The translations under genes and the position numbers were made by a program. Shown in pieces: positions 4,404 through 51,990 of a DNA stretch of 64,000 nucleotides. Positions within the stretch are counted from its first letter, which is position 1, and every line of letters starts with the position of its first letter. The notes under the pieces are model-generated. The model was not told where the DNA came from and did not search any database. It saw only the letters and a program-made list of their open reading frames with translations. Source of the DNA: an uncultured Bdellovibrionales bacterium (lineage in GTDB: Bacteria > Patescibacteriota > Minisyncoccia > Moranbacterales > DUUL01); contig CAYQVD010000003.1 in assembly GCA_964421125.1 (NCBI GenBank), positions 5,779 through 69,778 of the forward strand, given 5' to 3'.

Positions 4404-5510
4404 ATGATTATTGAAGTAGCCCAAATACAAACTATTCCAGAGGTTCTTGCCATGGCTAAGATAGTTATTTTGTCAGTTTTGGCTTTTGTTTTAGCAATGG
4501 GGCTCACACCTTTGCTGGCTTATTTTTTGTATAAATATAAAATAGGAATTCGAATAAAAGATAAAGATGTTGATGGGGAGAAGCTTTCCCATGTTAGTAA
4601 AATGCATGCTCATAAAAGTGGGACTCCAACAATGGGAGGGATTCTTATTTGGGGAACTGTTTTAATTTTGATTATAGTTATGCATTTTTTAGCTCCATTT
4701 TTTTCGGAATGGACTCAAAATGTTTGGATAAGTCGTTTAGATTTTTTAAGTAGAAGTCAAACATGGCTTCCTCTTTTTGCTTTGATTTCAGTTGCCATCC
4801 TTGGGATGGTTGATGACTTTATGAGTATTAGAAATGTTGGTGGGAACAAGGGAGGCGGGATGAGATTTTTCTGGAGATTAATTTGGATTATCGTGATCAC
4901 AGCCTTTGGTGCTTGGTGGTTTTATTCCAAGCTTGGCTGGGACACTATTCACATTCCAGCAGTGGGAGATTTTGAAATAGGACTTTTCTATATCCCACTT
5001 TTCATGTTTGTGATTATTGCATCTGCTTTTTCTTCAAATGAAACTGATGGTCTGGATGGGCTAAATGCAGGAATTCTTGCTCAAGCTTTCGCAGTGTTTT
5101 CTTTAATTTCATTTTTTCAAGGGAGAATGGATTTAGCAGCTTTTTGTGGAGTTATTGCTGGAGTATTGATGGCATTTTTGTGGTTTAATTTTTATCCAGC
5201 TAGATTTTTCATGGGAGATACTGGAGCATTTTCGTTAGGAGCAACTTTGGGTGTAGTGGCGCTTTTAACTAACTCGGTGATCGTATTGCCTTTTATTGTT
5301 ATAATTTATGTAATTGAATCATCCTCCGTTGTCGTTCAATTGACTTCTAAGAAAGTTTTTAAGAAAAAAGTATTTTTAGCTGCTCCAATTCATCATCATT
5401 TTGAAGCAAGAGGTTGGCCGGAAACAAAAGTTACGGTGAGATTTTGGATTATTAATATAGCAGTGGCAATAATTGGCTTGTTAATTGGAATTATTGGTAG
5501 TGGGTTTTAA
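4404..5510 (+). CDS. mraY: Phospho-N-acetylmuramoyl-pentapeptide transferase MraY
   Basis: Polytopic membrane protein with MraY motifs: MGGILIW, DDFMSI, NETDGLDGL, APIHHHFE. Confidence 0.9.
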   Translation: MIIEVAQIQTIPEVLAMAKIVILSVLAFVLAMGLTPLLAYFLYKYKIGIRIKDKDVDGEKLSHVSKMHAHKSGTPTMGGILIWGTVLILIIVMHFLAPFFSEWTQNVWISRLDFLSRSQTWLPLFALISVAILGMVDDFMSIRNVGGNKGGGMRFFWRLIWIIVITAFGAWWFYSKLGWDTIHIPAVGDFEIGLFYIPLFMFVIIASAFSSNETDGLDGLNAGILAQAFAVFSLISFFQGRMDLAAFCGVIAGVLMAFLWFNFYPARFFMGDTGAFSLGATLGVVALLTNSVIVLPFIVIIYVIESSSVVVQLTSKKVFKKKVFLAAPIHHHFEARGWPETKVTVRFWIINIAVAIIGLLIGIIGSGF

Positions 5511-6995: not shown

Positions 6996-9020
6996 ATGGC
7001 GGAAAAAAAGAAGAAAATTGGGGAGTATTCAGCAGATTCGATTCAAGTTCTTGAGGGATTAGAGCCGGTTCGAAAAAGACCTGGAATGTATATTGGAGGA
7101 ACATCTCTACAGGGACTTCATCATTTGGTTTGGGAAGTTGTTTCAAATTCGATTGACGAAGCGATGGCAGGATATGGAAATTATATAGAAGTTGAAATTC
7201 TTCCAGGAAACAAAATTTCCGTGAGTGATGATGGACGAGGAATTCCAGTTGAGAAGCATCCACAAACGGGGCTTTCAACTCTCGAAACTGTTTTAACAAA
7301 ACTTCATGCTGGTGGAAAATTTGGTGGAGATGGATACAAGGTCTCTGGAGGTCTTCATGGAGTTGGTATTTCAGTTGTTAATGCTTTATCTGTTTGGACA
7401 AAAGCTGAAGTGCATCAAAAGGGAAAAATTTGGACTCAGGAATACTCAAGAGGGATTCCAACAGGAAAAATTAAGAGAACTGGAAAAACTACTAAAAAGG
7501 GAACGGTTATTACATTTGAGCCTGATCCACAAATATTTTCAGAAATTGAATGGAACTGGAAAACAATTTCTAGTTATTTAAGAGAACAAGCTTATTTAAC
7601 TAAAGGTGTTCATATTAAATTAATAGATGAAAAAGATGATAATCCGGAAATGCATCGAAAAGTTGGTTATTGTTTTGATGGAGGAATTAAATCTTTTGTT
7701 AGTTTTTTGAATAAAGGGAAAGAAATTATTAACCCAAATATTTTTTATGTTGAAAAAGAAAATGACGGAATTCTTGTAGAGCTATCCATGCAATATCAAG
7801 GAGGAATGAAAGATAGATTAATGTCTTTTGCTAATAATATTAATACAGTTGAAGGAGGAATGCACGAAACTGGTTTTAGAACAGCTCTAACTCGAACAAT
7901 TAATGATTATGGAAGAAAAAAGGGCATTCTAAGAGAAAAAGAAGGAAATCTAACGTCAGATGATGTTAGAGAGGGAATTACAGCTATTATTTCAGTAAAA
8001 CTTACTGATCCTCAATTTGAAGGACAAACAAAATCTAAACTTGGAAATTCAGAAGCAAGAACTGCAACTTCAGCAGTGGCCTCAGAAGCATTAGTTGATT
8101 ATTTTGATAAAAATCCACAAGATGCAAAATTAATTATTAGTCGATGTTCTTTGTCTGCTCGAGCTCGATTAGCTGCAAAAGCTGCGAAAGATGCTGTTAT
8201 TAGAAAAGGTGTTCTTGACGGAATGACTTTACCGGGAAAACTTTCAGATTGTAGTAGTAAGAAGCCTGAAGAATGTGAAATATTTGTGGTTGAGGGAGAT
8301 TCTGCTGGTGGAAGTGCTAAACAAGGTCGTGATCGAAGATTTCAAGCAATTTTACCTATTTTTGGAAAAATGTTGAATGTTGAAAAAGCAAGAATTGATA
8401 AGGTTATTAAAAATGATAAAATTCAACCTCTTATTATTGCAATGGGGGCCGGAATTGGCGAAACATTTAATATTGAAAAACTTCGTTATCACAGGATTGT
8501 GTTGATGGCCGATGCGGATGTCGATGGTGCGCATATTCGAACTCTTCATTTAACTTTTTTTTATCGTTATTTTGAAGAACTTCTTAGGAGAGGCCATATT
8601 TATATTGCTCAACCACCGCTTTATAAAGTTCAAAAAGGAAAAGATTTTAAGTATGCCTTTACGGATGAAGAAAAAGATGAATATGTTGCAGAATTTAGCA
8701 AGGCTTCCAATGGAAAAGTAGAAAAAGAAATAGAGAAAGTTGTTGAAGAAGATGATGATGAGACTAGTGATGGTGATGAAAATGAAATTAAGGATAAATC
8801 TGGAATTAAAATTCAGCGATACAAGGGTCTTGGAGAAATGAATCCAGATCAGCTTTGGGATACAACGATGAATCCTGAAACTCGAATGATGTATCAAGTA
8901 ACCATTGAAGATGCTGAAAGAGCAGACAAGATGTTTGATATTCTTATGGGAAGTGAAGTTGCTCCTCGAAAGAGATTTATTCAGGCGCATGCTAAAAGCG
9001 TGCAAAACCTTGACATCTAG
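6996..9020 (+). CDS. gyrB: DNA gyrase subunit B
   Basis: GHKL ATPase (LHHLVWEVVSNSIDEAMAGY), Toprim (VEGDSAGGSAKQGRDR), C-terminal GyrB tail; 674 aa. Confidence 0.9.
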   Translation: MAEKKKKIGEYSADSIQVLEGLEPVRKRPGMYIGGTSLQGLHHLVWEVVSNSIDEAMAGYGNYIEVEILPGNKISVSDDGRGIPVEKHPQTGLSTLETVLTKLHAGGKFGGDGYKVSGGLHGVGISVVNALSVWTKAEVHQKGKIWTQEYSRGIPTGKIKRTGKTTKKGTVITFEPDPQIFSEIEWNWKTISSYLREQAYLTKGVHIKLIDEKDDNPEMHRKVGYCFDGGIKSFVSFLNKGKEIINPNIFYVEKENDGILVELSMQYQGGMKDRLMSFANNINTVEGGMHETGFRTALTRTINDYGRKKGILREKEGNLTSDDVREGITAIISVKLTDPQFEGQTKSKLGNSEARTATSAVASEALVDYFDKNPQDAKLIISRCSLSARARLAAKAAKDAVIRKGVLDGMTLPGKLSDCSSKKPEECEIFVVEGDSAGGSAKQGRDRRFQAILPIFGKMLNVEKARIDKVIKNDKIQPLIIAMGAGIGETFNIEKLRYHRIVLMADADVDGAHIRTLHLTFFYRYFEELLRRGHIYIAQPPLYKVQKGKDFKYAFTDEEKDEYVAEFSKASNGKVEKEIEKVVEEDDDETSDGDENEIKDKSGIKIQRYKGLGEMNPDQLWDTTMNPETRMMYQVTIEDAERADKMFDILMGSEVAPRKRFIQAHAKSVQNLDI

Positions 9021-9177
9021 TTGAAAATTAACTATCTGGCGCACTTCGTTGTTAAAATCTGCGCTTTTCACTCGTCGTATAATTAATACGACTCGTTCAA
9101 TGCTCGATTTTGCCTAGAAGTGCACTCAGATATTTAATTTTCATATCTTTAAATTTAATAATTAAAAATAAATAAAA

Positions 9178-10191
9178 ATGAAAATTGCAATAAATGGTTT
9201 TGGGAGAATTGGACGACCAGTTATGGAAATCGCTCTTGAAAATCCAGAGTTAGAAGTGGTTGCCATAAATGACTTGGCAGATATTGAAAATCTGGCATAT
9301 TTATTGAAATACGATACGGTTTATGGTGTTTATGAGCATGATATTGAAACTCGGGATGGAAATTTGATTGTAGGTGGAAAAGAAATTAAAGTTTTATCAG
9401 AAAAAGATCCCGCAAAGCTTCCTTGGAAAGAAATGGGAGTTGATATTGTTTTTGAATGTACTGGAATTTTTAAAGATCAAGAATCTGCTGGTGCACACTT
9501 AAAGGCTGGGGCAAAGAAGGTGGTAATTTCTACTCCTACTAAAGACGATACAGTTAAAACTGTTGTAATGGGTTGTAATGAAGAAGAACTTACTGAAGAA
9601 AATAATGTGATATCAATGGCATCTTGTACAACAAATTGTGTAGCACCGATGATGAAAGTCTTGGATGAAAAATTTGGAATAGAGAAATCTTTGATGTCAA
9701 CAATTCATAGTTATACCTCAACCCAATCGCTTGTTGATGGGCCAGCTAAGAAAGATATGAGAAGAGGCCGTGCAGCTGCCCAAAATATTGTTCCTTCAAC
9801 AACTGGAGCAGCTATTGCAGCAACAAAAACTCTCCCAGCCTTAAAAGAAAAATTTGATGGAATGGCTTTTCGTGTTCCAATTCCAGTTGGTTCAGTTACT
9901 GATGTAGTTGCTTTATTAAAAAAAGATGTAACAGAAGATGAGATTAATAATGCTTTTAAAGAGGCGTCAGAAGGAGAGCTTGAAGGAATTCTTCAGGTTA
10001 CTGACGAGCCACTCGTTTCTCACGATATTGTAGAAAGCACCTATTCCTCAATTGTTCAAACTGATTTAACCAAAGTGGTTGATGGAAACTTGGTGAAAGC
10101 AGTTGCTTGGTATGATAACGAATGGGGTTATTCAAATCGCCTTATTGATCTTGGAGTATTTTTGAAAAAATTTATTATTAGTGAAGAATAA
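9178..10191 (+). CDS. gap: Glyceraldehyde-3-phosphate dehydrogenase
   Basis: KIAINGFGRIGR Rossmann start and ASCTTNC catalytic Cys motif. Confidence 0.9.
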   Translation: MKIAINGFGRIGRPVMEIALENPELEVVAINDLADIENLAYLLKYDTVYGVYEHDIETRDGNLIVGGKEIKVLSEKDPAKLPWKEMGVDIVFECTGIFKDQESAGAHLKAGAKKVVISTPTKDDTVKTVVMGCNEEELTEENNVISMASCTTNCVAPMMKVLDEKFGIEKSLMSTIHSYTSTQSLVDGPAKKDMRRGRAAAQNIVPSTTGAAIAATKTLPALKEKFDGMAFRVPIPVGSVTDVVALLKKDVTEDEINNAFKEASEGELEGILQVTDEPLVSHDIVESTYSSIVQTDLTKVVDGNLVKAVAWYDNEWGYSNRLIDLGVFLKKFIISEE

Positions 10192-10196
10192 TTTAA

Positions 10197-10967
10197 ATGA
10201 TTGGAGTATTTGACAGTGGTGTTGGAGGATTAACTGTTGTGAAAGCAATTAAGGAAATTAAACCAAGTTTGCCATTGATATATTTTGGAGACACAGCTCG
10301 AGTTCCTTGGGGAGATAAAAGTCCTGAAACAATTCGAGAATACTCTCATCAGATATGTGATTTTTTGATTTCAAAAAAGGTTGATGAAATCATAATTGCG
10401 TGTAATACTGCATCTTCTGTGGCGGGTAATTACTTGCGAGAAAAATTTCCCGATATTAAAATCATTGATGTTGTTAGTCCAACGATTAGTGCGATTGAAA
10501 AAAATAAAAATGTGAACAAGGTAGCCGTAATTGGAACCAAGGCTGTTATTGCGAGTCAGTTTTATGACAAGAAAATCAAAGAAGCTTTTAGTGATATTGA
10601 AGTTAAATCAAAAGCTTGTCCATTGTTTGTCTCCATTGTTGAAGAAGGCTGGCATGAAGAATCTTTTGCTGAGGAAGTTGCAGAAAAATATCTTAAAGAT
10701 ATTCGTGATTGGAAACCTGATGTTTTAGTTTTGGGTTGCACTCATTATCCATTGTTAAAAAAAACAATCAAAAAAGTGATAGGAGGAAATGTGAAAGTGA
10801 TAGATTCTGCTTCTCCTGTGGCTGATTATATTAAAAATGATAATATTATTAGATTAGACGATTCGGTGATTGATCAGTTTTATTTTTCAGACTTATCGCC
10901 TCATTATCAAAATTTAATTGAAGTTATATTAGGAAGTTCTATTGATTCCAAGCAACTTAATTTATAG
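10197..10967 (+). CDS. murI: Glutamate racemase
   Basis: IGVFDSGVGGLTV, ACNTAS, GCTHYP motifs. Confidence 0.85.
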   Translation: MIGVFDSGVGGLTVVKAIKEIKPSLPLIYFGDTARVPWGDKSPETIREYSHQICDFLISKKVDEIIIACNTASSVAGNYLREKFPDIKIIDVVSPTISAIEKNKNVNKVAVIGTKAVIASQFYDKKIKEAFSDIEVKSKACPLFVSIVEEGWHEESFAEEVAEKYLKDIRDWKPDVLVLGCTHYPLLKKTIKKVIGGNVKVIDSASPVADYIKNDNIIRLDDSVIDQFYFSDLSPHYQNLIEVILGSSIDSKQLNL

Positions 10968-11002
10968 AACAGCTAAGACAATAAGAAGCATAAAAAATAT
11001 TT

Positions 11003-12412
11003 GTGATGAAAATTTCTGAATTAAAGAATAAGAAAGTGACGGTGATGGGGATTGGATTGCATGGTGGTTCGGTTCAATTGATTAAATGGCTTCTTGAAAA
11101 AGGGGCAATTGTTACTGCAACTGATATTAAAAATAAAGAAAAGTTGAAAACTTCAATTGATGAAATTGGTGATCACAAAAACTTGAAAATTGTAGCTGAT
11201 CAACATCGACCAGAAGATTTTCAAAAAGCAGAACTGGTGATTAAGAACCCAACCGTTCCTTGGAAAAACAAGTATATTCAAATGGCAGTTAAAAAAAATA
11301 TTCCAATTGAAATGGATTCGTCTTTGTTTTTTCAATTTTGTCAGAGCGATAAGATTATTGGAATAACTGGGACAAAAGGGAAGACTACAGTTTCTTCTTT
11401 AATGGTGGATATTTTAAAAAATGCAGGGGAAAAAGTTGTGAGCGTTGGAGTTGGAAAAGAGCCTGTGATGAGTAAGTTGAAAAAAATTGACGAGAATACT
11501 TATGTGGTTTTTGAACTGTCTTCTTGGAGGCTTTCGGGAATTGATCAAATTAAAAAGAGTCCAAAGGTTGCTGTTGTTACAAATATTTATCCAGATCATT
11601 TGAATCATTATTCTTCAATGGAAAAGTATATTGAAGATAAAAAGGCAATTTTTAAACATCAGAAAGAAGAAGATAGTTTGATATTAAATTGGGACAATGA
11701 GATAACCAGAGAGTTTGCCGAAGAAGCTATTTCTCAAAAAATATTCTTTTCAATAAATAAAGCAGATGAACCGATAAGTGTTTTTATTAATGAAGGAGAG
11801 ATTGTTTATCGAAATGATGATGGTGAGGAGAAAATAATTTTAGATATTAAAAAAATAAGATTAAGAGGGGCACATAATATTTCCAATGCTTTAACCGCGA
11901 TTACCGTAGGAATTTCTTTGGGAATTGATATTGCAGTAATTAAGTCAGTTGTTGAAAAATTTCCAGGAGTGAAACATCGCTTGGAATATGTTGGAAAAAT
12001 AAATGAAAAATTTTTCTATAACGATACTACTGCTACTACTCCTGATTCAGCGATCGCTGGAGTAAATTCTTTTTGGAAACCAATTATTTTGATTTGTGGT
12101 GGAGCTGAAAAGAAACTTGACCTAAGTGAATTTGCAAAGAAAATTGCTACTGCTAAGAGTGTCAAAAAAATTATTTTATTAAAAGGTGAGGCAACTGAAA
12201 AGTTGAAAAGTATGATTGAAGAAAACGGTGGAATTGAAAAGATTGTTGATGTTTATGATAATATTGAAGAGGCAGTTCAAAAATCAGATGAAGTTTCTGA
12301 AAAAGGCGAAGTCGTTTTGCTTTCACCGGGATGCGCAAGTTTCGGAATGTTTGAAAATGAATTTGATCGGGGAAGGAAATTTAAAAGAGCAGTGGAAGTG
12401 TTACGTAACTAG
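11003..12412 (+). CDS. murD: UDP-N-acetylmuramoylalanine--D-glutamate ligase
   Basis: Mur ligase P-loop GITGTKGKTT; N-terminal MurD-type Rossmann VTVMGIGLHGG; length typical of MurD. Confidence 0.85.
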   Translation: MMKISELKNKKVTVMGIGLHGGSVQLIKWLLEKGAIVTATDIKNKEKLKTSIDEIGDHKNLKIVADQHRPEDFQKAELVIKNPTVPWKNKYIQMAVKKNIPIEMDSSLFFQFCQSDKIIGITGTKGKTTVSSLMVDILKNAGEKVVSVGVGKEPVMSKLKKIDENTYVVFELSSWRLSGIDQIKKSPKVAVVTNIYPDHLNHYSSMEKYIEDKKAIFKHQKEEDSLILNWDNEITREFAEEAISQKIFFSINKADEPISVFINEGEIVYRNDDGEEKIILDIKKIRLRGAHNISNALTAITVGISLGIDIAVIKSVVEKFPGVKHRLEYVGKINEKFFYNDTTATTPDSAIAGVNSFWKPIILICGGAEKKLDLSEFAKKIATAKSVKKIILLKGEATEKLKSMIEENGGIEKIVDVYDNIEEAVQKSDEVSEKGEVVLLSPGCASFGMFENEFDRGRKFKRAVEVLRN

Positions 12413-12648
12413 TTACTTAACACTTTTTGCATTGAAAATGGCGGGAATATAGTAGTATATTTTTTTGAAGCATCATCAGGAGAAAAGGTGTCTTGGAATG
12501 TAATTAATATATCTTCTCGCAACGCCATCGGAATGGCGAAATCCTCGAAGATACATTAATTACATTCCAAGATGAAAGAAGTTTTGAGACACTCAAAATT
12601 ATATCAGCTATATTTTTAAAAGTGTGAGATTATAAATAAGTTTAAAAA

Positions 12649-13218
12649 ATGGAAAAATATAATAATAAAAAAGTTATTGCAGTGGTTGGGATGGCTGGTG
12701 CTGGGAAGTCAGAAGTAACGAATTATCTTTTGGAGAAACTTTCTTGTCCGAAAGTATATTTTGGTGATGTGACATTTAATCGAATGAAAGAGGATGGGCT
12801 TGAATTGAATTATGATAATGAACGGGTGACTAGGGAGAAAATTAGAGTAGAGCATGGAATGGGGGCTTATGCAAAATTTTCTCTTCCAAAAGTTATTAAA
12901 CTTTTAGGGGATAATGATGTTGTAGTTATTGAGAGTCTTTACAGCTGGGATGAATATAAAATTATTAAAGAAGAATTTGGAGGTAGCTTTATGGTAGTGG
13001 CAGCACATGCTTCACCAGAGGCAAGATCATTAAGACTTAAGAATAGAGAGCATCGTCCGGTTAAAACTAGAGAGGATTTGTATCAACGTGATAAGACTGA
13101 ACTAGAAGGCACAGACAAGGGAGGGACAATTGCTATGGCTGATTTTATGTTAATTAATGAAGGCACACTTGAAGAGCTTCACGAAAAAATTGATAAAAAT
13201 GTTTTGAATAAGATTTAA
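12649..13218 (+). CDS. P-loop nucleotide kinase-like protein (dephospho-CoA kinase / dNMP kinase superfamily)
   Basis: Walker A VIAVVGMAGAGKSEV at the N-terminus; ~190 aa NMP-kinase-sized fold. The specific family was not determined. Confidence 0.45.
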   Translation: MEKYNNKKVIAVVGMAGAGKSEVTNYLLEKLSCPKVYFGDVTFNRMKEDGLELNYDNERVTREKIRVEHGMGAYAKFSLPKVIKLLGDNDVVVIESLYSWDEYKIIKEEFGGSFMVVAAHASPEARSLRLKNREHRPVKTREDLYQRDKTELEGTDKGGTIAMADFMLINEGTLEELHEKIDKNVLNKI

Positions 13219-13222
13219 CTTT

Positions 13223-13718
13223 ATGGAATTATTAAGAGAGATAGATGACAATGAAAACGGAGAAATAGAAAAAGAGAGGACAGCAGCGAGGGGTGTGTTT
13301 TTTGATGATAAAGATAATATTCCAGTTTTGTTTGTTTCAAAATATAATTACCACAAGCTTCCGGGGGGGGGGCGCTAAGGATGGCGAAGATTTAAAAGAG
13401 ACACTTGATAGAGAAGTTTTTGAAGAAACCGGATGTGGAATTGAGGTGATCGGAGAAGTTGGTAAAATTATTGAGTATCGAAGAAGGTGGAACATGAAAC
13501 AAGATTCCTTTTGTTATTATGGAAAAATAATACAAAAAGGAGATACCTCATTTACAGAAAAAGAGACTGAACAAGGATTCATTTTGAAATGGATGACTTT
13601 AACTGATGCGTTAAGAGTTATCGAGAAGGATAAGCCGAAAAATTATGAAGGAAAATTGATACAGAAAAGAGATTTGATTTTTTTAAAAAAGACTAAAGAT
13701 ATCTTGACGAATAATTAA
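13223..13718 (+). pseudogene. Nudix hydrolase split by a +1 frameshift inside a G10 homopolymer (13363-13372)
   Basis: Upstream frame: MELLREIDDNENGEIEKERTAARGVFFDDKDNIPVLFVSKYNYHKLPGGGR*. Downstream frame (ORF 13293..13718) continues GGGAKDGEDLKETLDREVFEETGCGI, a perfect Nudix box. Removing one G gives the contiguous ...YHKLPGGGAKDGEDL... Nudix consensus. Confidence 0.65.
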
Positions 13719-13747
13719 TTGTCTCAAAAACTATCAATTGGTTGCAT

Positions 13748-13776
13748 TTGACTTTTGGCTTTAAATGAAGTATAAT
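13748..13776 (+). promoter_or_regulatory. Sigma70-type promoter TTGACT-17-TATAAT upstream of lepB
   Basis: Consensus hexamers with 17-bp spacing; a short hairpin (agccttgtttcaggct + T-run) lies between it and the start codon. Confidence 0.5.
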
Positions 13777-13840
13777 TAGCTTGAAATTAAGTAAAAAAGC
13801 CTTGTTTCAGGCTTTTATTGTGTCGTTTGTAAGAATAATA

Positions 13841-14491
13841 ATGACTGAAGAAGAAAAAGAAGAGAAAATTGAAGAAAAGGCAGTTCCAGAAGAGAAAGGT
13901 GAGACAAAAGTCTCATATATTTTTGAGTTAATCAAAATCATAATTTGGTCATTAGTTATTATTATTCCTATTAGAGCGTTTCTTTTTCAACCTTTTTTTG
14001 TAAAAGGAATTTCAATGGAAACGAATTTTTATGATGGGAATTATTTAATTGTAAATGAATTAGGATTCAAGGAAACAGAGTTTTCTATTGCTGGTAAAGA
14101 GTTGTTTACTGTAGAAAATTTTAGAGATTTTAATCGAGGAGATGTTGTTGTTTTTCATTATCCTAATAATCCTAAAGATTTTTTCATTAAAAGAATTATT
14201 GGATTACCAGAGGAAAAGATTGTAATTAAGAGTAATCGAGTAATGGTTTATAATAATGAATATCCAGAAGGATTTGTTTTAGATGAATCAGAATATTTGC
14301 CTGGAAATTCTCAGTTAACAAGTTGTAGTGGAAAATGTACCTACGAGTTAGGAGAAGAAGAATATTTTGTTCTTGGGGATAATAGAAATCATAGTAGTGA
14401 TTCTAGAAGCTGGGGAAAGCTTGAGCAAGGCTTTGTTGTTGGAAAAGTTCTTTTTAGAGCTTGGCCTGTTGGAGATATTAAGATTTTTTAA
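13841..14491 (+). CDS. lepB: Signal peptidase I (start moved to the in-frame ATG at 13841, because the longer ORF would begin upstream of its own -10 box)
   Basis: N-terminal TM helix; catalytic Ser (GISME) and Lys region; box E GDNRNHSSDSRSWG. Confidence 0.8.
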   Translation: MTEEEKEEKIEEKAVPEEKGETKVSYIFELIKIIIWSLVIIIPIRAFLFQPFFVKGISMETNFYDGNYLIVNELGFKETEFSIAGKELFTVENFRDFNRGDVVVFHYPNNPKDFFIKRIIGLPEEKIVIKSNRVMVYNNEYPEGFVLDESEYLPGNSQLTSCSGKCTYELGEEEYFVLGDNRNHSSDSRSWGKLEQGFVVGKVLFRAWPVGDIKIF

Positions 14492-14509
14492 ATATTTAGT
14501 TTAATAAAG

Positions 14510-15868
14510 ATGTCACGTATAAGAAAGATTAAATCAAAAAAGTTAGAAGTTGCAAAAACTGCGATAAAAAGAACAAAAAAATTGAAACCAAAACAGTTTC
14601 AAACTGTTCGAGGAATGCGAGATATTCTTCCCGATGTGCAACCTTATTGGCAAAAAGTAAGAAAAGCATTTGAAAAAATTTCAAATGATTATAGTTATCA
14701 ACGAATTGATCTTCCGTTAGTTGAATTTCGAGAGCTTTATGAACGAGGAACTGGAAAGAATACTGACATTGTTGAAAAAGAGATGTTTAAATTTAGAACT
14801 CAAGGTAATGATGATGTTGCTTTGCGACCTGAAGGTACCCCTGGTGTTGTGAGAGCTTATTTGCAAAATGGAATGCAGTCTTGGTCAAAACCAGTAAAGC
14901 TTTCCTATATGGGGCCAATGTATCGATATGATCGTCCACAAGAAGGTCGATATCGAGAGTTTTATCAATTTGGTTTTGAAGCAATTGGTGAAAAAGATGC
15001 AATCTTGGATGCACAAGTAATTCAGATGGCTCTTCGAGTCTTTAAGCTTATTGGATTTAAAAAGCTTTCATTACAAATTAATAGTATCGGATGTAGTGAA
15101 TGTCGACCAAGTTATAATTCTTTATTAGTGAGTTATTTAAATAATCGGAAGAAATCTTTATGTATGGATTGTAAGAAGAGACTGAAAAAAAATCCTTTAA
15201 GAGTTTTGGATTGTAAAGAAGAGAAATGCACACAAGTTGTTTCACAGGCTCCTCAAGCAATCGATCATCTTTGCAAGGAATGCAAGGATCATTTTACTTT
15301 CTTACTTGAGTGTTTGGATGAATTGGATGTTCCCTATGAGATTAATTCAAAGCTTGTAAGAGGTTTGGATTATTATACTAAAACAGTATTTGAAATTTGG
15401 TCCACAAATGACGAAAAAGGTGCAAAAATGGCACTTGGTGGTGGTGGTCGATATGACGAGCTTGTCGAATCATTAGGAGGGAAGAAAACTCCAGGTGTTG
15501 GATTTGCGGCAGGAGTTGACCGAGTGACTGAGAAGATGAAGGAGATTGGCGTGAAAGCTTTTTATCCAGCCCCTCCAAGAGTGTATTTAGCACAGCTTGG
15601 TGATATGGGGAAGAAGAAGAGCTTGAAAATATTTGAAGAATTGGAAAAAGCAGGGATTGGTGTGGCAGAAAGTTTTGGACGAGGAAATCTTCGTTCTCAA
15701 CTCAATCAAGCTAATCAACTTGATATGGATTTGGTTTTGATTATTGGTCAAAGAGAGGCACTTGATGAAACTGTGATTATTAAAGATATGAAATGTGGTA
15801 GTCAAGAAGTAGTTGCATTTAATAAGGTTGTTAATCAGGTAAAAAAGAGATTAAAGAATAATCAATAA
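14510..15868 (+). CDS. hisS: Histidyl-tRNA synthetase carrying a Cys-rich (4x CxxC-type) insertion
   Basis: Class II motifs (RGMRDILPD; FRPEGTPGVVRAY; RYDRPQEGRYREFYQFG; GGGGRYD). Insertion ...GCSECRPSY...CMDCKK...CKEEKC...CKECKDHF between motifs 2 and 3. Confidence 0.9.
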   Translation: MSRIRKIKSKKLEVAKTAIKRTKKLKPKQFQTVRGMRDILPDVQPYWQKVRKAFEKISNDYSYQRIDLPLVEFRELYERGTGKNTDIVEKEMFKFRTQGNDDVALRPEGTPGVVRAYLQNGMQSWSKPVKLSYMGPMYRYDRPQEGRYREFYQFGFEAIGEKDAILDAQVIQMALRVFKLIGFKKLSLQINSIGCSECRPSYNSLLVSYLNNRKKSLCMDCKKRLKKNPLRVLDCKEEKCTQVVSQAPQAIDHLCKECKDHFTFLLECLDELDVPYEINSKLVRGLDYYTKTVFEIWSTNDEKGAKMALGGGGRYDELVESLGGKKTPGVGFAAGVDRVTEKMKEIGVKAFYPAPPRVYLAQLGDMGKKKSLKIFEELEKAGIGVAESFGRGNLRSQLNQANQLDMDLVLIIGQREALDETVIIKDMKCGSQEVVAFNKVVNQVKKRLKNNQ

Positions 15869-15903
15869 TCAATAAATTATCTGTTGATTGTTCAGTTCGA
15901 ATC

Positions 15904-16054
15904 CTTCTGGTAACATAAATTTTGAAAAAAATAAACTCGAGTATGAATTTTGTTGCTGAAAATCTCACCCATATTCAACACCACCTTGGTCGATTTTCAG
16001 ACAAAATTCAAACTCTCAAACATAATTTTTTGTCAAAATTTATGTTACCAGAAG
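15904..16054. repeat. Perfect 21-bp inverted repeats (cttctggtaacataaattttg / caaaatttatgttaccagaag) flanking a 109-bp AT-rich core; MITE-like element or long hairpin
   Basis: The two arms are exact reverse complements; read directly from the sequence. Confidence 0.6.
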
Positions 16055-16074
16055 ATTAGCTAAGTATTTTTTAA

Positions 16075-16440
16075 ATGGTTTTTATGAAAGATTGTATTTT
16101 TTGTAAAATTGCTAGAAAAGAAGCTCCGGCTACATACCATTATGAAGATGATGAAATTGTGGCTTTTGATGCAATTCCAAAAATTGCACCAATTCATATT
16201 CTCATTATTCCAAAAGAACATATTGAAAGCGTTAATGAATTGACAGAAGATAAAAAAGGTGAAAAAATAGCTGGAAGATTGATTTTAGTGGCTAAGAAAA
16301 TAGCTAGAGAAAAAGGGATTAATGAGGATGGCTATAAATTGCTTATCAGAACAGGAGAGCATGGTGGTCAGGAAGTTCCTCATCTTCATTTGCATCTTTT
16401 GGGAGGAGCAAGATTATCTGAAGGAATTAAGCCGATTTAA
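16075..16440 (+). CDS. HIT-family nucleotide hydrolase (histidine triad protein)
   Basis: HLHLHLLGG histidine-triad motif; N-terminal CIFCKI. Confidence 0.8.
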   Translation: MVFMKDCIFCKIARKEAPATYHYEDDEIVAFDAIPKIAPIHILIIPKEHIESVNELTEDKKGEKIAGRLILVAKKIAREKGINEDGYKLLIRTGEHGGQEVPHLHLHLLGGARLSEGIKPI

Positions 16441-16471
16441 AGTAATTAATGAGTTTATATAAAATAACTGG

Positions 16472-16527
16472 CCCTGTTGAATAATTTGATTCGCAAATTA
16501 AAAATCGAAAATTTTTATTTCACAGGG
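16472..16527 (+). promoter_or_regulatory. Conserved ~56-nt hairpin motif in the rpsU leader (a paralogous copy lies upstream of dnaK at 62045-62098)
   Basis: CCCTGTTGAATAATTTGATTCGCAAATTAAAAATCGAAAATTTTTATTTCACAGGG versus the dnaK copy CCCTGTTAAATAATTTGCTTTGCAAATTAAAATCGAAGATTTTATTTAACTGGG. Confidence 0.5.
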
Positions 16528-16558
16528 TAAATTAAACTATGAGAAAGGAGGAGCTATT

Positions 16559-49068: not shown

Positions 49069-51990
49069 ATGAATTCAGTGAAAACAGCGACTCCGAAATA
49101 TAACTTTAAATCCATTGAGAAGAAATGGCAGAAATATTGGGAGGAAAACAAGACTAATCAAGTTGATTTAGAAAAGGCTGAAAATCCTTTCTATAATTTG
49201 ATGATGTTCCCATATCCTTCAGCAGAAGGTTTGCATGTTGGAAATATGTATGCTTTTACTGGAGCAGATGTCTATGGACGTTTCAAAAGACTTCAAGGGT
49301 ATGATGTTTTTGAGCCAATTGGATTAGATGGATTTGGTATTCACAGTGAAAACTATGCAATTAAGATTGGAGAACATATCAATGAATTCTCCAAGCGAAG
49401 TGAAAAAAGATTTTATGAGCAATTAAGCTTGGTCGGGAATATGTATGATTGGTCTCGAACCGTTGAGACTTATAAAACTGATTATTATAAATGGACTCAA
49501 TGGCTTTTCTTAAAAATGTTTGAAAAAGGGTTGGCTTATCAAAAGAAAGCCAAGGTTAATTGGTGTCCTTCTTGTAAGACAGTGCTTTCAGATGAACAAG
49601 TAGTCCAGGGAAAATGTGAGCGATGTGATAGTCAGGTTGAGAAAAAGGAACTAAAACAATGGTTTTTCAAGATTACTGATTATGCAGATCGGCTTCTTGA
49701 AAATTCTCAAAAAGAAGATTTTGATTGGCCAGCAGATGTAAAATTAAATCAACAAAATTGGATTGGAAAATCTGAGGGAGCCTCGATCAAATTTCCAATT
49801 TCCAATTTCCAATTTCCAAATAAATCTCAAAATTCAAATTCTCAAAAAAAGGATAAGTTTATTGAAGCTTTTACTACTAGACCAGACACTTTATTTGGGG
49901 CGACTTATATGGTGGTTGCACCAGAGCATGAAATTCTACAAAATCAAAAATCAAAAATCAAAAATCAAAAAGAGGTGTTTGAGTATGTTAAGAAATCTTT
50001 AAATAAATCGGAGCAAGAAAGAAAGGAAGAAGAAAAAACAAAGACAGGAGTTGAGTTAAAAGGAGTCAAGGCAATTAATCCAGCAACTAAGGAGGAAATT
50101 CCAGTTTGGGTGGCTGACTATGTTTTGGCTGGTTATGGAACGGGAGCGATTATGGCGGTTCCAGCGCATGATGAACGTGATTTTGAATTTGCGAAAAAGT
50201 TTGGATTGGAAATTAAAGATGTTGTTGTTCCATACATTAAAGATAATCCAAGAGATGATAAGGAAACTGAAGAAAGGGATGCTGTTGTTGGAGTTGTTAA
50301 AGATCCCAAAACTAATAAATATCTTTGTTTGAAATGGAATAAAACAGAATGGCAATCTTTTCCATCTGGAGGGACTGACGGAGATGAAATTGTGGAGGCT
50401 GGAAAGAGAGAAATAAAAGAAGAAACTGGTTATATTGATTTGGAATTTAAAAAAGAACTTGGGAGTCCAATCTTTGCAGAATTCTATCGACCCCATAAAG
50501 ATTCAAATGTAATTGCAAAATTTAGATATCTATTATTTGAACTTAATAGCGATGAACAAGTTGAAATTGAAAAAAAGGAAATGGAAATACATGAGCCTTT
50601 GTGGATTGATGAAGAAAAGATAGAATCTTTTATTAATGTTTCTAATCAGAAAATTGTTTGGGAGCGATTGACTCAAGGAATAAAATCTTTTTGTGGAGAA
50701 GGAGTCAGTATTGATTCAGATTTTTTGGATGGACTGAAAACTGCTGAAGCAAAAACTAAAATGATTGAATGGCTTGAAGAAAATAAAGTTGGTAAAAAGG
50801 CTGTTGATTATAAGTTGCGAGACTGGTGTGTTTCAAGGCAAAGATATTGGGGACCACCAATTCCAATTATTCATTGCAAAAATTGTGGAACGGTGCCAGT
50901 TCCAGAAGAAGATCTGCCAGTGGAGTTGCCACCAATGGATGATTTTTTACCAGAAGGAAAAGGAAAAAGTCCACTTGCGAAGAATGAAGAATTTGTGAAA
51001 GTGAAATGCCCAAAGTGTGGAACGGATGCAGAAAGAGAAACTGATGTTTCTGATCCATTTGTGGATTCATCTTGGTACTTTTTTCGATATCCTTCAACTG
51101 AAATTGAAGATAAGCCTTTTGATAAAGAGCGTACTAAAAAATGGTTACCAGTGGATAGCTATATTGGAGGCAAGGAACATACTGTTCTTCATTTGCTTTA
51201 TTCTCGTTTTGTGACGATGGTTTTGCACGATTTGGACTATATTGATTTTGATGAGCCTTACAAAAGATTTTTTGGGCATGGGCTTATCACCAAAGATGGA
51301 GCAAAAATGTCAAAATCAAAAGGAAATGTAGTGAATCCAGATGAGATGATTGAGAAATATGGAGCAGATACAGTGCGATTATATTTGAGATTCTTGGGAG
51401 ATTTTTCTCAAGGAGGAGATTGGCGAGATAGTGGTGCTGAAGGAATTTTCAAGTTTGTGAAAAAACTTTGGGCAACTTTCTTTGAACTTGAAAATGTTGA
51501 AGGAAATGGGGTTGAAAAAACTAATATGATTGATAAAACAATTAAAGTGATTGGTGAAGATATCGAAAGACTTTCATTTAATACTGCTGTTGCAAGATTA
51601 ATGGAGTTTGTGAATTGGATTAGAGACAATATTTCAGAGTTTGATCAATCTCAGGCAAAAAGAGTTCAAGAAGTTTTGGCGCTTGTCAGCGCTCCAATGA
51701 TGCCACATATTGCAGAAGAATTTTGGAATCAAATTGGAAACGAGGATTCAGTGTTCAATTCAAAGTGGCCGGAGTTTAATGAAAATAATATTTTGGATGA
51801 TGAAATTGAACTTGTGGTTCAAGTGAATGGAAAAGTCAGAGATCGAATTCAGTGTCCAAGAGATGTTTCCGAAAAAGATGCAAAGAAATTGGCGACAGAA
51901 AGTTTGAAAATTAAATCTTACACTGAAGGAAAAGAGATAATAAAAACAATCTATGTTCCAGGAAAGCTTGTTAATATTGTTGCCAAGTAG
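49069..51990 (+). CDS. leuS: Leucyl-tRNA synthetase with an inserted Nudix hydrolase domain (973 aa)
   Basis: PYPSAEGLHVGN (HIGH variant), ZN-1 CPSCKT...CERCD, editing-domain blocks TTRPDTLFGATYMVVAPEH and GTGAIMAVPAHDERD, KMSKSKGN. Extra ~140-aa Nudix fold (..SFPSGGTDGDEIVEAGKREIKEETGY..) between the editing domain and the RLRDW block. Confidence 0.9.
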   Translation: MNSVKTATPKYNFKSIEKKWQKYWEENKTNQVDLEKAENPFYNLMMFPYPSAEGLHVGNMYAFTGADVYGRFKRLQGYDVFEPIGLDGFGIHSENYAIKIGEHINEFSKRSEKRFYEQLSLVGNMYDWSRTVETYKTDYYKWTQWLFLKMFEKGLAYQKKAKVNWCPSCKTVLSDEQVVQGKCERCDSQVEKKELKQWFFKITDYADRLLENSQKEDFDWPADVKLNQQNWIGKSEGASIKFPISNFQFPNKSQNSNSQKKDKFIEAFTTRPDTLFGATYMVVAPEHEILQNQKSKIKNQKEVFEYVKKSLNKSEQERKEEEKTKTGVELKGVKAINPATKEEIPVWVADYVLAGYGTGAIMAVPAHDERDFEFAKKFGLEIKDVVVPYIKDNPRDDKETEERDAVVGVVKDPKTNKYLCLKWNKTEWQSFPSGGTDGDEIVEAGKREIKEETGYIDLEFKKELGSPIFAEFYRPHKDSNVIAKFRYLLFELNSDEQVEIEKKEMEIHEPLWIDEEKIESFINVSNQKIVWERLTQGIKSFCGEGVSIDSDFLDGLKTAEAKTKMIEWLEENKVGKKAVDYKLRDWCVSRQRYWGPPIPIIHCKNCGTVPVPEEDLPVELPPMDDFLPEGKGKSPLAKNEEFVKVKCPKCGTDAERETDVSDPFVDSSWYFFRYPSTEIEDKPFDKERTKKWLPVDSYIGGKEHTVLHLLYSRFVTMVLHDLDYIDFDEPYKRFFGHGLITKDGAKMSKSKGNVVNPDEMIEKYGADTVRLYLRFLGDFSQGGDWRDSGAEGIFKFVKKLWATFFELENVEGNGVEKTNMIDKTIKVIGEDIERLSFNTAVARLMEFVNWIRDNISEFDQSQAKRVQEVLALVSAPMMPHIAEEFWNQIGNEDSVFNSKWPEFNENNILDDEIELVVQVNGKVRDRIQCPRDVSEKDAKKLATESLKIKSYTEGKEIIKTIYVPGKLVNIVAK

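Follow-up and report, generated by a model that had tools for sequence, protein, structure and literature searches.

A poly-G tract and +1 frameshift at the Pro-Gly-Gly-Gly codons of a standalone Nudix gene, as assembled from an uncultured member of the Patescibacteria

Poly-G tracts that switch genes are known from Campylobacter and Neisseria. The classical contingency loci of these organisms contain an intragenic run of 9–11 G that gates the reading frame in single-G steps, which is also the arrangement of the locus described here. Each organism carries dozens of such tracts, located mostly in genes for surface structures or restriction-modification; the tracts are conserved between strains, and both ON and OFF lengths are seen. 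In C. jejuni, poly-G tracts have a modal length of 9, with G9 and G10 typical, and change length at rates of ~1e-4 to 4e-3 per division (PMC3401435). The individual rates per division are ~1.0e-3 for G9 to G10, ~1.8e-3 for G10 to G9, 0.4e-3 for G10 to G11, and 3.9e-3 for G11 to G10 (PMC3401435). Frameshifts in the 7C tract of Mycobacterium tuberculosis glpK (bioRxiv 10.1101/717272) and in the poly(A) tract of Listeria monocytogenes inlA (PMC2831843) are likewise revertible changes of a short homopolymer in an otherwise intact gene, and glpK provides the precedent that a reversible homopolymer frameshift can affect a metabolic enzyme (bioRxiv 10.1101/717272).

The locus lies in a 64-kb stretch of DNA with a GC content of 33.0%, referred to below, at its full length, as the window. 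GyrB relatives place the source organism in the Patescibacteria near Moranbacteria/Moraniibacteriota. The Nudix gene occupies 13223..13718 on the + strand, and in its G9 form it encodes 164 aa; as sequenced, it is frameshifted by a G10 homopolymer at 13363..13372 (+ strand), a run of exactly 10 nt in the context CTTCC-G10-CGCTAAGG that covers the codons for Pro47, Gly48, Gly49, and Gly50. The upstream frame begins at ATG 13223, reads ...KYNYHKLPGGGR, and ends in YHKLPGGGR before a TAA stop at 13376-13378, giving a product of 51 aa (13223..13378, + strand) that terminates in LPGGGR. The +1 frame reads ...SFRGGGAKDGEDLKETLDREVFEETG... and is also given, past the G10 tract, as ...GGGAKDGEDLKETLDREVFEETGCGIEV..., with its stop at 13716-13718. 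This downstream frame (13374..13718, + strand) encodes Ala51 to Asn164 and so holds most of the Nudix box, which ends at Cys71 (nt 13436), together with the C-terminal helices. Translation of tract-length variants demonstrates that a gene rebuilt with G9 yields a continuous 164-aa protein. The G12 variant is also in frame and adds a fourth Gly, and the G8, G10, and G11 variants are out of frame. In composition the gene does not stand out as foreign, with a GC content of 33.5% against 33.0% for the window.

Gene callers have annotated the locus as two genes, a 51-aa peptide and, in the downstream frame, a 128-aa ORF from TTG 13332 (P0001, P0122), the latter of which would be an N-terminally truncated Nudix protein. 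The probability that these are two genuine small genes is negligible. The family is contiguous in every homolog, and at 80 of 80 homologous loci from species-representative genomes (L002–L081) the gene occupies a single frame. Searches with the repaired protein identified 373 homologs at E≤1e-3, nearly all of 160–170 aa, and an alignment with 31 homologs matches the repaired protein from Met1 to the C-terminus. The 39 invariant columns of this alignment include Y43-H-K-L-P-G-G-G50, the segment that exactly spans the break. Furthermore, the AlphaFold2 model built from the 31-homolog alignment is a single Nudix domain (pLDDT 95.2) in which residues 1–50 form five of the β-strands and the Nudix helix (residues 57–69) begins just past the break. 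The 128-aa ORF itself opens with MFQNIITTSFR, an out-of-frame stretch that is simply the other frame of the N-terminal part. Because the homologs are contiguous and the model has a single domain, the 51-aa and 128-aa "proteins" are pieces of a single Nudix gene that carries a +1 frameshift. Based on the model, the 51-aa fragment would be unable to function as an enzyme alone, and the G10 allele is predicted to yield no full-length protein.

These findings agree with the original prediction, made from the letters of the window, which had described a G10 run on the LPGGG codons of a single Nudix gene that becomes contiguous, with its Nudix box intact, when one G is removed. The exact count of the run, the reading of both frames, the 164-aa translation, the alignment, the 80 single-frame loci, and the model bear this description out, and it is accurate in every detail. 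The outcome that had been named as fatal to it, two separate genes, is excluded by comparison with the homologous loci and by the structural model.

Sequence and structure both place the repaired protein in the Nudix hydrolase superfamily. Its Pfam NUDIX (PF00293) match covers residues 19–137 with E=1e-12 and a score of 48.6 bits (gathering cutoff 21.1). In the G9 frame the Nudix box reads G49 GAKDG E55 DLKETLD R63 E64 V F E67 E68 T G70 C71, so that G49-x5-E55-x7-R63-E64-V-F-E67-E68-T-G70-C71 is an exact fit to the consensus GX5EX7REUXEEXGU; in the G10 sequence, the opening Gly lies in a different frame from the rest of the box. In a Foldseek search, 532 PDB entries matched at E≤1e-3; the 50 top-ranked ones that were listed all belong to the Nudix family. 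The AlphaFold2 model and these matches show the repaired protein to have the α/β/α Nudix fold. The protein shares this fold and the canonical box with the solved structures of Aquifex Ap4A hydrolase (3i7u), an Enterococcus faecalis MutT/nudix protein (2azw), human DIPP1-3, and M. smegmatis MutT1, but it is only 18–23% identical to them, with query-normalized TM-scores of 0.55–0.64. The low identity of these PDB relatives means that a Nudix substrate is not assignable. The best PDB sequence match is Ap4A hydrolase (E=8e-5). A MutT (8-oxo-dGTP diphosphatase) identity was considered and rejected on the NCBIfam and PDB results: the NCBIfam profile search found no MutT equivalog, only sub-threshold RppH-type models (28.7 bits vs a cutoff of 118), and the names given to homologs are automatic annotation.

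A second Nudix-like sequence is present in the window within the gene for a 973-aa leucyl-tRNA synthetase (LeuRS; 49069-51990, + strand), where it forms an insert at ~50251-50658 directly after the editing domain (Pfam NUDIX E=1.2e-7, residues 403–518). The box of this insert, G-x5-E-x6-REIKEETGY, is one residue short, and the insert is 38% identical to the standalone Nudix protein over 80 aa. Among 1.84 billion representative proteins, 351 relatives of the insert were found at E≤1e-3. The seven that were checked are LeuRS proteins with one to three Nudix domains before or after the editing domain, one of which also contains a HAD domain, and standalone forms of the insert of ~160 aa exist as well. 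No paper in the searched literature contains both "leucyl-tRNA synthetase" and "Nudix domain".

The length of the tract was compared among assemblies. A Logan re-assembly of run SRR8862237 contains a 10.6-kb contig (SRR8862237_4990) that carries G10, and the retrieved parts of this contig are 100% identical to window 8006-15945 (7.7 kb), the tract included. The exact 51-aa product (P0123), which requires G10, is on record from NCBI, JGI/IMG, Logan, and ENA, and the JGI copy of the downstream ORF is located on a separate contig of 20.5 kb. A different length, G11, is present in a MEGAHIT contig from ENA (ERZ27316679, k141_539254), in which the gene call for the downstream frame is 74 aa (P0121). 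This 3.2-kb contig corresponds to window 13302-16547, differs from the window by one SNP (at 14609), and has its first nucleotide 61 nt from the tract. MEGAHIT contigs are broken up in this region, ending at window 12506 and 13134 and restarting at 13302, and the G11 call may rest on few reads. Thus the repeat number is G10 in three assemblies and G11 in one fragmentary assembly, all of them consensus sequences; the G10 assemblies are independent by assembler, but they may derive from the same or sister samples and may share reads. Among ~15 billion proteins there is neither an in-frame product (from G6, G9, or G12) nor any of the N-terminal fragments that G7, G8, G11, and G13 would give. Scans of metagenome and genome contig collections for the sequences flanking the tract had no match, as this genome is missing from them.

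These records bear on whether the frameshift is present in the DNA at all. If the true tract were G9, the gene would be intact and the extra G would stem from a homopolymer miscall or library-PCR stutter carried into assemblies of the same reads. Poly-G/C runs of at least 8 are a known trouble spot in Illumina assemblies, where contig breaks are common (PMC4235727), and the disagreement between G10 and G11 shows that the length call is not robust. In addition, one contig begins 61 nt from the tract, and the G10 assemblies may share reads. Against such an artefact, G10 was obtained from at least three pipelines (the NCBI MAG, the JGI/IMG contig, and the Logan k-mer assembly of the raw run), and no assembly gives G9. 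The window also contains ~100 A/T runs of 7–9 nt that lie inside long intact ORFs, and the assembly is consequently taken to have no general problem with homopolymer indels. Additionally, even at 3.6x coverage, Illumina/SPAdes assembly of a sister lineage gave an in-frame G10 in a MraY-like gene. Runs tend to lose rather than gain units by PCR stutter, and a true G9 would more likely have been miscalled as G8. The original prediction had named a simple consensus error, with G9 as the real length, as a finding that would overturn it; this outcome is disfavored by the G10 of a second assembler and of the JGI and ENA records, by the G11 found elsewhere, by the lack of a G9 product, and by the clean homopolymers. 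A plain consensus error is unlikely and the artefact reading as a whole is improbable; it is very likely that the majority of the DNA really is out of frame.

A frameshift that is real in the DNA could still be overcome during expression. The layout "slippery codon followed by a hungry codon or stop" is that of known +1 sites such as prfB and Ty1, and the sequence GGG-CGC-UAA at the end of the run conforms to it: the codon that follows the run in the 0 frame is CGC, the rarest Arg codon in the window (7 of 657, 1.1%), with the stop directly after. In a recoding mechanism the G10 allele would be functional, and the full-length enzyme would come either from a +1 ribosomal slip, with the P site shifting from GGG to GGC during a pause at the rare A-site codon CGC ahead of UAA, or from RNA polymerase slippage with loss of one G. 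A ribosome slipping by +1 at GGG 13370-13372 would produce LPGGG-AKDG, the exact product of the G9 gene. This mechanism is nonetheless very unlikely. The layout also arises automatically from a frameshift in an AT-rich genome, and the site is not conserved, as no ortholog is frameshifted (80 of 80 loci contiguous). The G11 allele is not rescuable by the same slip. Folding of the downstream 100 nt is no more stable than that of shuffled sequences (z=+0.66), which gives no sign of a stimulatory RNA structure, and Shine-Dalgarno motifs precede only ~9 of 49 genes, making a prfB-like Shine-Dalgarno stimulator unlikely. Transcriptional slippage is documented mainly for A/T runs. Compared with prfB-type +1 frameshifting and the transcriptional slippage of dnaX and Shigella mxiE, the locus is alike in its slippery run, rare codon, and stop, and in the fact that a +1 slip recreates the family sequence, but it differs in that orthologs do not share the site, neither the downstream 100 nt nor Shine-Dalgarno usage points to a stimulatory element, and the G11 allele is incompatible.

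The tract is as exceptional in this AT-rich DNA as had been predicted. It is the sole G or C run of at least 7 in the 64-kb window, where the next longest G runs are 6 (n=1) and 5 (n=15) and C runs reach at most 5. When the window was shuffled 100 times with dinucleotides preserved, G9 was matched at a mean of 0.11 per window, and the equivalent of G10 (two overlapping G9 matches) was reached in 1 of the 100. The codons are unusual as well. In the window, GGG accounts for 15% of Gly codons, GGC for 4.6% of Gly codons, and CCG for 16% of Pro codons, such that the in-frame form CCG GGG GGG GGC has p ~1.8e-4 from window codon usage, and the other seven Gly-Gly-Gly motifs of the window avoid all-G codons, being encoded by mixed codons with G runs of 2–3.

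This codon choice is among the findings that favor an evolved contingency locus, in which selection would keep the poly-G tract since stochastic ON/OFF expression of the Nudix enzyme benefits the population. G10 and G11 would then be OFF and G9 ON, and the benefit might concern, e.g., nucleotide-pool sanitation, mutation rate, or a signaling nucleotide. Codons 47–50 do contain a frame-switching hypermutable repeat, which is the structure expected of a contingency locus; its length is in the range of the classical loci, for which G9 is modal (PMC3401435), assemblies of a single population give different lengths, the gene is intact apart from the tract, and glpK 7C (bioRxiv 10.1101/717272) and inlA poly(A) (PMC2831843) provide precedents. 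Other properties of the locus point away from such a switch. No ON-length allele is on record: among ~15 billion proteins and in contig DNA, only G10 (by its exact product) and G11 (as DNA) are found, and both are OFF lengths. A second G/C run of at least 7 is lacking in the 64 kb, so the window offers no sign of a phasome, and a cytoplasmic, housekeeping-type enzyme is an atypical target for phase variation. Furthermore, no paper in the searched literature joins Patescibacteria, or Nudix genes, with homopolymer phase variation.

The distribution of the tract among homologs also argues against a conserved switch. Among 75 scored loci with the motif H-K-L-P-G-G-G, the longest G run in the motif is 2 in 52 loci, 3–6 in 22, and 8 in a single locus; thus 74 of the 75 have runs of at most 6. 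The exception, from a Magasanikiibacteriota MAG (L032), has the in-frame form CCA GGG GGG GGT, and the tract is absent from the other 79 of the 80 homologous loci. As homologs encode the motif with shorter G runs, the poly-G tract is specific to this lineage and not a feature of the family. The closest intact homolog is 61% identical, a metagenome scan for a closer ortholog that might reveal the ancestral tract gave nothing nearer than this, and the comparison of the tract in orthologs accordingly extends to relatives at that distance or beyond. Contigs of sister lineages retrieved via GyrB (84–87% identity) all end before the Nudix locus, and one sister contig with 92% nucleotide identity (L083) begins just after the Nudix gene.

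A sister lineage offers an instructive parallel. The in-frame G10 mentioned above is found at positions 1780-1789 of contig L170 (ENA ERZ23510489 NODE_5757), where AAG GGG GGG GGG ATG encodes KGGGM in a MraY-like gene that is the ortholog of window 4404-5510; GyrB of this lineage is 85% identical. The window and three other relatives have mixed Gly codons at this site. The MraY-like gene is presumably essential, and an OFF state would presumably be harmful. Since a presumably essential gene has acquired an in-frame G10, poly-G tracts can arise without a switching role, and the finding suggests a tendency in this clade for G runs to lengthen where Gly-Gly-Gly is encoded. The proposal of an ON/OFF contingency switch, which was part of the original prediction, thus receives weak support: the difference in length between assemblies is in its favor, and the OFF state of both lengths, the missing ON allele, the absence of the tract from homologs, and the G10 of the MraY-like gene are not. 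Selection for a switch is an unlikely explanation of the tract, although one to be kept in mind, and it is doubtful that a population of Moranbacteria-like Patescibacteria truly toggles a conserved Nudix hydrolase by poly-G slippage. An evolved switch is a minority possibility, and an accidental hotspot is the more likely explanation.

A slipped-strand frameshift at an accidental hypermutable tract, which leaves the gene off in the sampled population and could revert, is therefore the explanation that we favor, with somewhat more confidence than doubt. The ancestral gene would have been a single, otherwise intact Nudix gene whose invariant Pro-Gly-Gly-Gly was encoded almost entirely by G (CCG GGG GGG GGC, G9). 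Slipped-strand mispairing during replication would have added one G to convert G9 to G10, shifting the frame past Gly50 so that translation ends two codons on, and most cells of the sampled population would be without functional enzyme. Runs of 9–11 G are intrinsically unstable; the tract probably drifts in length and may return to G9. It would thus act as a stochastic off/on mutation hotspot that arose by accident in a dispensable gene, not as a switch shaped by selection. The condition of the rest of the gene is consistent with this proposal. The break looks recent or reversible: the G9-repaired gene contains no other stops or indels, and its product deviates from the family in 1 of 40 invariant columns and in 13 of 41 columns with conservation of 90% or more, much as other divergent intact members do. 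Against an accidental origin stands the improbable codon choice, which might reflect selection for mutability instead. CPR phyla differ in mismatch-repair status (PMC8406219).

The surroundings of the Nudix gene were also examined. The upstream neighbor (12649..13218, + strand) encodes a nucleotide-kinase-like AAA_18 protein (Pfam AAA_18 E=1.5e-10), the stop of which lies 4 nt before the Nudix ATG, and the two genes are probably co-transcribed. In NCBIfam, the AAA_18 protein has weak, sub-threshold matches to PRK08356 and to the kinase-like portion of NF041025, a model for anti-phage dCTP deaminase. Also nearby, at 16075-16440, is a gene for HinT/HIT. Five window neighbors, AAA_18 included, were sought around the Nudix gene at the homologous loci, and none was present at any of the 80. 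The family itself, with ~167 aa and an invariant YHKLPGGG, is 55–60% identical across Patescibacteria, DPANN archaea (Woesearchaeota, Pacearchaeota, Aenigmatarchaeota, and Nanoarchaeota), and some Clostridium, and it looks like a horizontally exchanged standalone gene. Downstream of the Nudix stop, in the region 13748-13816 (+ strand), a near-consensus promoter (TTGACT-17-TATAAT, 11 of 12 positions) precedes a signal-peptidase gene. It is followed by a short hairpin (AAGCCT, 6-nt loop, AGGCTT, T-rich tail; ~13797-13822, + strand) just upstream of the signal-peptidase ATG at 13841, and the region may be a leader or attenuator element. Both the promoter and an AGCCT/AGGCT hairpin are retained in the sister contig with 92% nucleotide identity (L083).

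Several general features of the window may be recorded here. Strand asymmetry is strong: the + strand, which carries nearly all long ORFs, has 13602 G and 7533 C. The leaders of most genes are AT-rich and lack a Shine-Dalgarno motif. The only structured RNA found in an Rfam search of the window was tRNA-Lys. Between the genes for GAPDH and MurD, the window contains an Asp/Glu racemase gene (10197-10967, 256 aa), and in a sister lineage whose GyrB is 86% identical this place is taken by a MurL-type epimerase of 491 aa (L164:9337-10812); the enzyme used at this point of the cell-wall gene cluster differs between the two lineages.

The findings have consequences at several levels. The locus should be annotated as one frameshifted gene in place of the split 51-aa and 128-aa entries now in public databases. 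If the G10 allele is real, a conserved Nudix enzyme is flagged as dispensable in at least one natural population, and the locus would exemplify how G-run codons turn Gly-rich catalytic motifs into mutational weak points in uncultured episymbionts with small, AT-rich genomes. Should reads prove to contain both G9 and G10, repeat-mediated phase variation would extend to the CPR and to a nucleotide-metabolism gene. Should the locus be a true switch, it would be the first instance of simple-repeat phase variation in the CPR according to the searched literature, and it would act on a nucleotide-metabolism enzyme as opposed to a surface or restriction-modification gene.

Placed beside the known systems, the locus is a mechanistically ordinary homopolymer frameshift, of the kind responsible for phase variation in Campylobacter and Neisseria and for the revertible changes in glpK and inlA. 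It differs from the classical poly-G loci in having one tract in 64 kb, a cytoplasmic enzyme as its target, orthologs that are free of the tract, and OFF lengths only. For glpK and inlA, reversion and phenotypes have been measured in culture and in clinical isolates, whereas the Nudix locus is known from assembled consensus sequences; what it has in common with both is a revertible type of frameshift, in a short homopolymer, within a gene that is otherwise intact.
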